From Escherichia coli (GTDB lineage: Bacteria > Pseudomonadota > Gammaproteobacteria > Enterobacterales > Enterobacteriaceae), in NCBI RefSeq assembly GCF_045037415.1, contig NZ_CP173438.1: a stretch of DNA of 64,000 nucleotides, one strand, 5' to 3'. Shown here piece after piece: positions 58,001 to 61,000 of the stretch; within the stretch, counting starts at the first letter, position 1, and each line of letters begins with the position of its first letter. Position numbers: made by a program.

Positions 58001-61000
58001 TCCGACGTGACGGTTAATGGCAATCTGACCAATACGTCCGGTGCTGTCAGTCTGCAAAATGGCATCGCTGGCGACACGCTGACGGTAAATGGTGATTATA
58101 CCGGCGGCGGTACGCTACTGCTCGACAGCGAATTAAACGGCGATGACTCGGCAAGCGACCAGTTGGTGTTGAACGGTAATACTGCTGGCAATACCACGGT
58201 TGTGATTAATCCCATTACAGGGATTGGTGAGCCGACATCTACAGGTATTAAAGTGGTTGATTTCGCAGCTGATCCCACGCAGTTTCAAAACAATGCGCAG
58301 TTCAGTCTGGCAGGAAGCGGCTACGTCAATATGGGGGCGTATGACTACACGCTGGTGGAAGATAACAACGACTGGTATCTGCGATCACAAGAAGTCAATC
58401 CGACGCCGCCGCCTGATCCAGACCCGACTCCAGATCCTGATCCCACGCCGGATCCCGACCCAACCCCCGACCCTGAACCTACGCCTGCTTACCAGCCGGT
58501 GTTGAATGCCAAAGTTGGTGGATATTTTAATAACCTACGTGCGGCAAATCAGGCATTTGTGATGGAGCGACGCGATCACGCAGGTGGCGATGGTCAGACG
58601 CTGAATTTACGCGTTATCGGCGGGCGTTATCATTACACGGCGGCAGGGCAGTTGGCTCAGCATGAAGACACTTCTACGGTGCAGCTTAGCGGCAACCTGT
58701 TTAGCGGGCACTGGGGTGATGATGGCGAGTGGATGCTTGGGATTGTTGGTGGCTACAGCGATAACCAGGGCGACAGCCGCTCGAATATGACCGGAACTCG
58801 CGCCGATAACCAGAACCGCGGTTATGCCGTTGGGCTGACCTCAAGCTGGTATCAGCACGGTAATCAGAAGCAGGGGGCCTGGTTGGATAGCTGGCTGCAA
58901 TATGCGTGGTTTAACAATGATGTTTCCGAACAAGACGATGGAGTGGATCATTACCACTCGTCGGGGATTATCGCCTCGCTGGAAGCCGGTTATCAGTGGT
59001 TACCGGGGCGTGGTGTGGTGATTGAACCGCAGGCGCAGGTGATTTATCAGGGCGTGCAGCAGGATGATTTTACCGCCGCTAACCATGCGCGCGTGTCACA
59101 ATCGCAGGGTGATGATATTCAGATGCGGTTGGGTTTACACAGCGAATGGCGTACTGCTGTTGGTGTCACGCCAACGTTAGATCTGAATTATTATCACGAT
59201 CCCCATGCGACGGAAATTGAAGAGGATGGCAGCACTATCAGTGACGATGCGGTGAAGCAACGGGGTGAAATAAAAGTGGGAATAACGGGCAATATCAGTC
59301 AGCGAGTTTCGCTGCGCGGCAGCGTGGCGTGGCAGAAAGGGAGTGATGATTTTGCCCAGATGGCAGGGTTTTTGTCGATGACAGTGAAATGGTAATCGCT
59401 GTCTGACCGGCACTGTTGCCGGATGCGGCGTAAACGCCTTATCTGGCCTACGGGGAGCATTTGTAGGCCTGATAAGACGCGGCAAGCGTCGCATCAGGCT
59501 TGGCGCGGTTGCCGGATGAATCCAAACAACAACCTCACTTATTCTGCGTATGCAGCATATAGTTCACATCCACGCCGGGGCCGAGCTTAAAGGTGTTAGT
59601 GATAGGGTTGTAATGCAGCCCGGTCATATGCCGTTCTTTAAGACTGGTCTGATCCACCCAGCCCAGCAATTCTGCCGGTTTAATAAACTTCTTCACATCA
59701 TGTGTACCTTTAGGCACCATGCGCAAAATATATTCAGCACCAACCACCGCCATCAGCCATGACTTGCCGTTGCGGTTAAGCGTCGAGAAAAAGACATCGC
59801 CGCCCGGTTTCACCAGTTGCGCACAGGCTCTGACCACTGACTGAGGATCGGGGACGTGCTCCAGCATCTCCATACAGGTCACCACGTCATACTGTCCGGC
59901 ATGTTTTGCCGCGTGCTCTTCCACGGTTTCCTGCACGTAATCCACCTGAATGCCGCTTTCCAGTGCGTGCAGTTTTGCCACCTGCAATGGCTCAAAGCCC
60001 ATATCCAGACCGGTCACCGTCGCGCCCTCCCGCGCCATACTCTCGGCCAGAATGCCGCCGCCACAACCGACATCGAGCACCTTTTTGCCAAATAAACCGC
60101 CAGCACGCTCGGCAATATAGCCCAGACGCAGCGGGTTAATGCGGTGCAGCGGTTTGAACTCACCTTCAAGATCCCACCAGCGGGAGGCGACGGCTTCAAA
60201 TTTAGCGATCTCTTCGTGGTCTACGTTGTGGTTTACCGGCGATTTTTCGGCATTCATTGGCACTTCTACTCCGTAATTGGCAAGACAAACGAGTATATCA
60301 GGCATTGGATGTGAATAAAGCGTATAGGTTTACCTCAAACTGCGCGGCTGTGTTATAATTTGCGACCTTTGAATCCGGGATACAGTAGAGGGATAGCGGT
60401 TAGATGAGCGACCTTGCGAGAGAAATTACACCGGTCAACATTGAGGAAGAGCTGAAGAGCTCCTATCTGGATTATGCGATGTCGGTCATTGTTGGCCGTG
60501 CGCTGCCAGATGTCCGAGATGGCCTGAAGCCGGTACACCGTCGCGTACTTTACGCCATGAACGTACTAGGCAATGACTGGAACAAAGCCTATAAAAAATC
60601 TGCCCGTGTCGTTGGTGACGTAATCGGTAAATACCATCCCCATGGTGACTTGGCGGTTTATAACACGATCGTCCGTATGGCGCAGCCATTCTCGCTGCGT
60701 TACATGCTGGTAGACGGTCAGGGTAACTTCGGTTCCATCGACGGCGACTCTGCGGCGGCAATGCGTTATACGGAAATCCGTCTGGCGAAAATTGCCCATG
60801 AACTGATGGCCGATCTCGAAAAAGAGACGGTCGATTTCGTTGATAACTATGACGGCACGGAAAAAATTCCGGACGTCATGCCAACCAAAATTCCTAACCT
60901 GCTGGTGAACGGTTCTTCCGGTATCGCCGTAGGTATGGCAACCAACATTCCGCCGCACAACCTGACGGAAGTCATCAACGGTTGTCTGGCGTATATCGAT

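Follow-up and report, generated by a model that had tools for sequence, protein, structure and literature searches.

REP units at three intergenic sites in a 64-kb stretch of Escherichia coli DNA

Repetitive extragenic palindromic (REP) elements, also called palindromic units (PUs), and the bacterial interspersed mosaic elements (BIMEs) that contain them have been catalogued in Escherichia coli since 1984. The E. coli units were reportedly described by Stern in 1984 and by Gilson, Bachellier and colleagues. Here, we describe the REP units of a 64,000-nucleotide stretch of E. coli DNA (RefSeq assembly GCF_045037415.1, contig NZ_CP173438.1; the whole stretch is called the window, and positions are counted from its first letter). 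The window contains exactly four REP units at three intergenic sites: one between nuoL and nuoM, one between inaA and yfaE, and an inverted pair between yfaL and ubiG. The 64-kb window is E. coli DNA in reversed orientation relative to K-12, so that nuoA-N is on the + strand, and its three REP sites are 100% identical to sequenced strains, for example SA186 and SK1144. Gene names at the sites were taken from the RefSeq annotation of matching genomes, and those given in a first-pass annotation of the window agree with it. That annotation also called the elements ordinary for E. coli, and K-12 indeed has the same elements at the same three sites.

REP units are divided into types Y, Z1 and Z2 in the nomenclature after Ton-Hoang 2012 (PMC3333891). 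In PMC3333891 and PMC1187871, BIME-1 (RIB/RIP) is described as one Y and one Z1 unit with a long L linker that often contains an integration host factor (IHF) site, about 140 bp in total, and BIME-2 as a tandem of Y and Z2 units with short linkers, other combinations being termed atypical. The naRNA4 family (RF02564) corresponds to the 77-nt Y-l-Z2 unit of REP325, a BIME-2 (PMC4550694). The four units of the window share the main features of the REP family, each being an imperfect palindrome of 34-41 nt with a GTAG foot and a stem mismatch, located extragenically near gene 3′ ends. The two paired units are near-identical to the K-12 Y unit (33 of 34 positions) and Z1 unit (35 of 37), and dispersed copies exist. 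Unlike in the family at large, the GTAG of the nuo copy pairs with a CTAC at the 3′ end of the same unit, and the inaA copy has one unpaired stem position rather than two.

The assignment of the four units to this family is carried by motif, profile and folding evidence. The 14-nt REP tail sequence CTTATCMGGCCTAC, with at most one mismatch, has four matches in the window against 0.02 expected, all of them at the four units, and none of 100 shuffles reached four. An nhmmer profile was built from the four K-12 nrdA-nrdB REP units; since this element is absent from the window, the profile is non-circular. Four full-length matches were obtained, at 34.5 bits for the Y unit of the pair (59417-59451), 25.2 bits for its Z1 unit, 18.3 bits for the inaA-yfaE unit and 16.7 bits for the nuoL-nuoM unit, with 10.1 bits for the best of 30 shuffles and at most 7.3 bits for any other match in the window. 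A profile made from the window's own four units scored them at 30-36 bits and gave at most 7.6 bits elsewhere or in noise. Neither profile scan found a further REP in the 64 kb. The first-pass annotation had placed REP palindromes at these three sites, and its list proves complete for the 64 kb, with coordinates correct to within 1-3 nt.

All four units fold as GTAG-footed imperfect hairpins with an internal bubble or mismatch (-18 to -25 kcal/mol, z -4.5 to -7.5) and with palindrome arms of 13-17 nt that are 85-92% complementary. The GTAG at the hairpin foot starts at 10805, 51149 and 59463, and appears as CTAC at 59448-59451. All four units are located in annotated intergenic spacers, with the nearest stop codon 9-38 nt away. 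In both single units, changes that preserve pairing were observed: GCC..GGC is replaced by GTC..GAC in the nuo copy, and CCTGAT..ATCAGG by CCAGAT..ATCTGG in the inaA copy. When 5,425 E. coli genomes were searched by megablast, a 321-bp query with the yfaL-ubiG pair was found at 15 places in the median genome and at 33 at most, indicative of a dispersed repeat.

An Rfam scan of the window at gathering thresholds returned the nuoG RNA as its sole family and no REP-derived match. The cut-off of naRNA4, the sole REP-derived family in Rfam, is high, and this silence is thus not evidence against REP. With E-value reporting, all four units matched naRNA4 below its gathering score of 59.5 bits (24-43 bits), with 43.4, 41.5 and 32.7 bits at the yfaL-ubiG pair (E 6e-7, 2e-6, to 1.5e-4), 27.2 bits at inaA-yfaE (E 0.002) and 24.3 bits at nuoL-nuoM (E 0.012), and each unit aligned to one or both hairpins of the model. 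However, even the best match remains below the gathering score, and the paired units are arranged tail-to-tail with a Z1 unit, not head-to-head as in Y-l-Z2. The four units are relatives of naRNA4 building blocks, not naRNA genes. A search with REP models, as the first-pass annotation had proposed, therefore recovered all four units with the independent profile and, below threshold, with naRNA4. Chance palindromes were rejected as an explanation on the motif enrichment and on the independent-profile scores relative to shuffles.

Several observations weigh against this assignment or against the roles that go with it. Megablast placed the nuoL-nuoM and inaA-yfaE units at a single position in each genome, their link to the family is through the profile only, and both are divergent, with 29/36 matches to the nearest REP class. 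The K-12 RefSeq feature table lists no REP features in 2336000-2385999, which is uninformative as a check of prior annotation. The K-12 Term-seq tables of Adams et al. 2021, in which only dominant ends are reported, assign no 3′ end to the 3′ regions of nuoL, ubiG, yfaL or yfaE, and stable REP-ended RNAs at these sites are thus undocumented in those data. The putative RNA- and DNA-level roles of the four units are drawn from the family literature. Overall, we are nevertheless highly confident that the four units belong to the REP (palindromic unit) family of E. coli, with proposed roles at the DNA and RNA levels.

The yfaL-ubiG pair is located between the convergent genes yfaL (+ strand, stop 59393-59395) and ubiG (- strand, stop 59535-59537), in a 139-bp spacer (59396-59534). 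Its Y unit (59417-59451) reads GTAG-first on the - strand, is 22 nt past the yfaL stop, and has the + strand sequence TGCCGGATGCGGCGTAAACGCCTTATCTGGCCTAC, which starts with TGCCGGATG and ends with CCTAC; the arms are 59418-59430 and 59435-59447, and the CTAC is at 59448-59451. The single change from K-12, C to T, converts a G-C pair to G-U. An 11-nt tail-to-tail linker, GGGGAGCATTT (59452-59462), separates this CTAC from the GTAG (59463-59466) of the Z1 unit, which is on the + strand at 59463-59499 (GTAGGCCTGATAAGACGCGGCAAGCGTCGCATCAGGC, beginning GTAGGCCTGAT), with arms 59467-59480 and 59486-59499. The Z1 unit, 37 nt in length with a long inner stem, ends 35 nt before the ubiG stop. It is followed at 59500-59518 by a 10-nt head-to-head linker, TTGGCGCGGT, and a 9-nt Y-unit stub, TGCCGGATG (59510-59518). 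Between the stub region and 59409-59425, spaced 93 nt apart, there is an imperfect direct repeat of 17 nt; K-12 is without 13 nt in the stub region. The Y and Z1 units can also co-fold into one long hairpin of 94 nt (-49 kcal/mol). As a side observation, a terminator-like hairpin and T-run (TTTTGCCCAGATGGCAGGG TTTTTGTCGA) were found at 59350-59368 (+ strand), within the coding end of yfaL and 25 nt before its stop; this is a consensus match only.

How does this pair compare with the described BIMEs? As in BIME-1, an inverted Y and Z1 pair is located at the 3′ ends of transcription units, and the presence of Z1 varies between strains, as seen in a 60-bp allele with one diverged REP. In contrast to BIME-1, the linker is 11 nt long and is not an L motif, no IHF consensus (WATCARNNNNTTR) was found on either strand of 59396-59534, the pair spans 83 bp versus about 140 bp, and a stub of a third unit is present in this strain. 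The short linker and the lack of an IHF consensus mean that the pair is not a canonical BIME-1. Nor is it a BIME-2, since the partner unit is Z1-like, not Z2; this exclusion rests on the likeness to Z1 and on the single complete pair plus 9-nt stub. Formally, the pair is thus an atypical BIME, with the unit composition of BIME-1 but without its defining linker. Its earlier description as an inverted pair forming a BIME stands as far as the inverted Y/Z1 arrangement is concerned, but not in the sense of a canonical BIME-1. Tail-to-tail linkers of 10-11 nt, like the one in this atypical pair, are also found in the Y-Z1-Y-Z1 array of K-12 nrdA-nrdB.

The spacer varies between strains. Most genomes have the pair, in a spacer of 139 bp (as in this window) or 127 bp (as in K-12), and a 60-bp form also exists. 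Coverage of the yfaL-ubiG query was below 80% in about 511 genomes, and the two that were inspected both have the 60-bp allele (MEI4B-1023, L008:297-356; B19695, L009:2697-2756), which the remaining low-coverage genomes may share. This allele contains a single diverged REP, GCCGGATGTGGTGCGAGCACCTTATCCGGCTAAC, and no Z1; GTGGTG...CACC stands in place of GCGGCG...CGCC, with both stem sides changed, and TAAC in place of CTAC.

The inaA-yfaE unit occupies most of a 53-bp spacer (51144-51196) between the convergent genes inaA (+ strand, stop 51141-51143) and yfaE (- strand, stop 51197-51199). It is located on the + strand at 51149-51184, with GTAG at 51149-51152 and arms at 51153-51165 and 51172-51184 that are 92% complementary, and it is Z1-like (29/36). 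The hairpin z-score is -5.9 on the + strand and -7.5 on the - strand. The unit was found in 5,420 of 5,425 E. coli genomes, and its differences from K-12 stay paired via G-U. According to the summary of Liang et al. 2015 in PMC12306157, a REP located less than 16 nt from a stop codon stalls terminating ribosomes and lowers expression. The stem of the inaA-yfaE unit is 9 nt past the inaA stop and 12 nt past the yfaE stop, so that, judged by position, it falls within this published distance for translational down-regulation on both strands. The units near the stops of yfaL (22 nt), ubiG (35 nt) and nuoL (38 nt) are outside this range. The inaA-yfaE unit is therefore a natural single hairpin within 15 nt of two convergent stops, usable for a two-strand test of ribosome stalling.

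The nuoL-nuoM unit is on the + strand at 10805-10845, in a spacer of 163 bp (10767-10929), beginning 38 nt past the nuoL stop and ending 84 nt before the nuoM ATG. It has GTAG at 10805-10808, arms at 10809-10821 and 10828-10840 that are 85% complementary, and a CTAC at 10842-10845 that lengthens the stem. The unit is a divergent Y-like one, with 29/36 matches to Y and 27/36 to Z1, and its hairpin has a predicted energy of -25.1 kcal/mol (z -5.1). No promoter or terminator motif was found in the spacer, and nuoA-N was surveyed as one operon by Dar & Sorek 2018. The unit thus does lie inside the polycistronic nuo transcript, as the first-pass annotation had noted.

Among 5,426 E. coli genomes, 4,699 have the 163-bp REP-containing spacer, and 724 (13%, including O157:H7) have an unrelated, REP-less spacer of 230 bp. 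The latter (L005:368-597 in O157:H7) and the spacer of Salmonella enterica subsp. arizonae CCUG 6322T (L110) have 100% identity, as against only 88-89% for the flanking nuoL and nuoM genes of E. coli and S. arizonae. A three-way alignment revealed a mosaic tract of about 300 bp, which runs from the last ~15 nt of nuoL through the spacer into the first ~50 nt of nuoM; inside this tract, the E. coli allele with the 230-bp spacer has 0-1 differences from Salmonella per 50 positions, and outside the tract it is E. coli-like. Spacer identity despite the diverged flanks, together with the short mosaic, implies a recent inter-species exchange, in either direction. Positions 82-199 of the 230-bp spacer (L005:449-566, about 118 bp) are a dispersed E. 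coli repeat, with 77-80% identity and 4 places in the median genome. This segment also occurs in the orthologous spacers of Citrobacter youngae (96%) and Intestinirhabdus alba (94%) and in those of Siccibacter, Kosakonia, Erwinia and Pantoea, where it is conserved more strongly than the flanking genes. Its core resembles enterobacterial repetitive intergenic consensus (ERIC/IRU) sequences, and it is called ERIC-like here in the sense of resemblance, as ERIC primer sequences, a weak test, align over the central core only. The two E. coli alleles provide a natural experiment on the nuo REP, with the REP allele in K-12 and this strain and the Salmonella-identical 230-bp allele in O157:H7.

The same spacer was compared across species in species-representative genomes, located in one scan with a back-translated NuoM N-terminus; 120 loci were obtained, and the spacer could be delimited in 116. 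Its length ranges from 18 to 295 bp over these 116 loci, being 19-27 bp in Providencia, Proteus, Morganella and Pluralibacter. A REP-less "basic" spacer of 76 bp occurs in several Enterobacter and Citrobacter species; its last ~55 nt are conserved in E. coli. These ~55 nt before the nuoM ATG (10875-10929, GAATTCGTTGAAAATCCGGTCCTGACGGGACTTTTACAAGGAATAAAGATCGCC) are conserved in Escherichia, Citrobacter, Klebsiella, Enterobacter and Atlantibacter, irrespective of the upstream repeat, and contain an AAGGA Shine-Dalgarno sequence as well as a small hairpin (GGTCC/GGGAC); they are probably the translation-initiation region of nuoM. REP calls in other species were made from sequences and folds, as a strict GTAG-plus-palindrome regular expression missed the Citrobacter and Klebsiella units. 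At the position of the E. coli REP, a GTAG-type REP or BIME of the species' own consensus was found in six loci, those of Citrobacter sp. R56, C. koseri, Klebsiella oxytoca, a Pseudocitrobacter metagenome-assembled genome, Escherichia sp. ESNIH1 and Pseudescherichia vulneris; four of the six were folded, and all four give hairpins. An ERIC-like structured repeat is present in the spacer at 26 of the 116 loci (within L010-L129).

These data bear on the suggestion of the first-pass annotation that the nuo REP may affect mRNA stability or the stoichiometry of distal subunits. The subunits of complex I are needed in equal amounts, and a strong polarity device in nuo would thus be counter-productive; the Nuo subunits are equimolar, whereas malE has to be made in excess of both malF and malG. 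A selected intercistronic stabiliser at nuoL-nuoM would shield nuoA-L from 3′ exonucleases after endonucleolytic cleavage and so determine how much proximal mRNA there is relative to the distal mRNA (NuoM, NuoN). Such a role is in keeping with a stable hairpin within a polycistronic transcript whose spacer has no promoter or terminator, with the frequency of structured elements in this spacer (a REP or BIME in six other-species loci and an ERIC-like repeat in 26 of 116), and with the precedent of the malE-malF REP, where a REP hairpin past the upstream cistron of a polycistronic mRNA is associated with differential decay (PMC5927463). Unlike at malE-malF, however, no differential decay or 3′ end has been reported at nuoL-nuoM in Dar & Sorek 2018 or Adams et al. 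2021. The full table of decay-regulated gene pairs in Dar & Sorek 2018, where the malE type of mechanism is listed, contains no nuo pair, the operon having been surveyed. Mapping of transcript 3′ ends had been proposed as a check, and the published K-12 Term-seq tables (Adams et al. 2021) show none in this spacer: the ends in the nuo region are at 2391429 (inside nuoN), 2394829 (inside nuoL) and 2399938 (nuoG), with nothing between the first two. A literature search for a REP at nuoL/nuoM found nothing, and the fluoride/REP paper does not mention nuo. Furthermore, a spacer with no REP is found in 724 of the 5,426 E. coli genomes, the 76-bp spacers of several Enterobacter and Citrobacter species and the 19-27-bp spacers of Providencia, Proteus, Morganella and Pluralibacter do without one, and the distance of 38 nt from the nuoL stop is beyond the range of the translational effect. 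Selection as a stabiliser is therefore considered unlikely. A broader version, in which the spacer is a conserved "landing pad" for a selected intercistronic RNA structure that is re-supplied by whichever repeat family is active and exchanged between species, is quite improbable in our view; the same low standing applies to the corresponding reading of the occupants as equivalents, namely the REP carried by most E. coli genomes, the species-specific REP/BIME of Citrobacter, Klebsiella and Pseudocitrobacter, and the ERIC-like repeats of many other genera. If true, the 15-kb nuo mRNA would really have to be divided into segments or protected, and REP would be one interchangeable way of doing so. 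Most likely, the REP between nuoL and nuoM is an insertion tolerated by a repeat-accepting spacer, and its effect on nuo mRNA, if any, is small. Thus, of the first-pass suggestion, the position within a polycistronic transcript is borne out, and the role in mRNA stability or stoichiometry is unsupported, though not disproved.

Two other readings concern all three sites. The elements might act mainly at the DNA level, through contacts with IHF (as BIME-1/RIB), DNA gyrase (as BIME-2) or HU and naRNA4 at cruciforms. Gyrase cleavage is enriched in BIME-2 and prefers y-type REPs (PMC6379681), and the pair includes a y unit; HU with naRNA4 bridges cruciform-forming REPs (PMC4550694), and the pair could extrude a cruciform. 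Yet the IHF consensus is absent from all three spacers and the 11-nt linker is too short for an L motif, the partner unit is of type Z1, so that the pair is not a BIME-2, and two of the three sites have a single REP. A mainly DNA-level action is accordingly given little credence, and its specific form as an IHF-binding BIME-1 was rejected for want of an IHF site. It is far less probable still that the hairpins are Rho-independent terminators of the flanking genes, bidirectional at the convergent sites. GC-rich stem-loops just past the stops of convergent gene pairs would suit this function, but no T/U run follows any stem on either strand, a terminator scan was negative at all REPs, the nuo copy is mid-operon where read-through is required, and the sequences are members of a dispersed repeat family. 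Intrinsic termination was therefore rejected on the lack of U-tracts. The motif scan found no promoter at the REPs.

Taking the four units as REP family members, the following mechanism may be proposed by analogy. TnpA-REP requires GTAG and a stem mismatch and cleaves and recombines BIMEs (PMC3333891), and both sequence requirements are present in the units, at the level of sequence. At the DNA level, the units would be non-autonomous elements that are recognised as single-stranded hairpins by the single-copy Y1 transposase TnpA-REP, a REP-associated tyrosine transposase (RAYT). Cleavage and recombination by this enzyme may generate variation in copy number and linkers, which would explain the variation of the spacers between strains. 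At the RNA level, REP hairpins impede exonucleases, and their clearance needs the degradosome with RhlB and polynucleotide phosphorylase (PNPase) as well as poly(A) polymerase (PMC12306157). The units would be co-transcribed with their neighbours as stable hairpins that slow 3′-to-5′ exonucleases, and would thereby be passive 3′ stabilisers of upstream mRNA, not terminators. The yfaL-ubiG pair would provide two hairpins for each of the convergent transcripts or, alternatively, the single 94-nt hairpin, and the inaA/yfaE unit would be expected to stall terminating ribosomes and reduce expression.

Strain variation extends to a locus where the window itself has no REP. K-12 nrdA-nrdB contains a 233-bp Y-Z1-Y-Z1 BIME with four complete units and a partial fifth, beginning about 8 nt past the nrdA stop. 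In the window, the nrdA-nrdB spacer (52583-52669, with the genes on the - strand) is instead about 90 bp and contains a perfect 14-bp palindrome at 52613-52626 and 52632-52645 (CCGTCCCCTCTCCC/GGGAGAGGGGACGG). Of 5,426 E. coli genomes, 1,684 have this short allele, each at a single place. PMC12306157 attributes nrdAB, as a REP-containing transcript, to the study of Liang et al. 2015; strains thus differ at that published regulatory site. BIMEs are known sources of intergenic polymorphism (PMC1187871, PMC3333891), and the polymorphism at these spacers is in line with this known behaviour. As these REP spacers vary between strains, it would be wrong to take them for conserved regulatory DNA.

The REP/BIME repeats of the window are already known, and the finding is correct and ordinary; such elements have long been catalogued and K-12 carries the same ones, which makes it of little consequence. 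Of modest interest are the Salmonella-identical, REP-less nuoL-nuoM allele, the recurrence of repeats in that spacer, and the inaA/yfaE REP within 15 nt of two stops. Elsewhere in the window, the nuoG RNA (RF01748), a cis-regulatory motif, was found as a full-length Rfam match at 3756-3798 on the + strand (50.3 bits, gathering score 33, E 1.2e-7).

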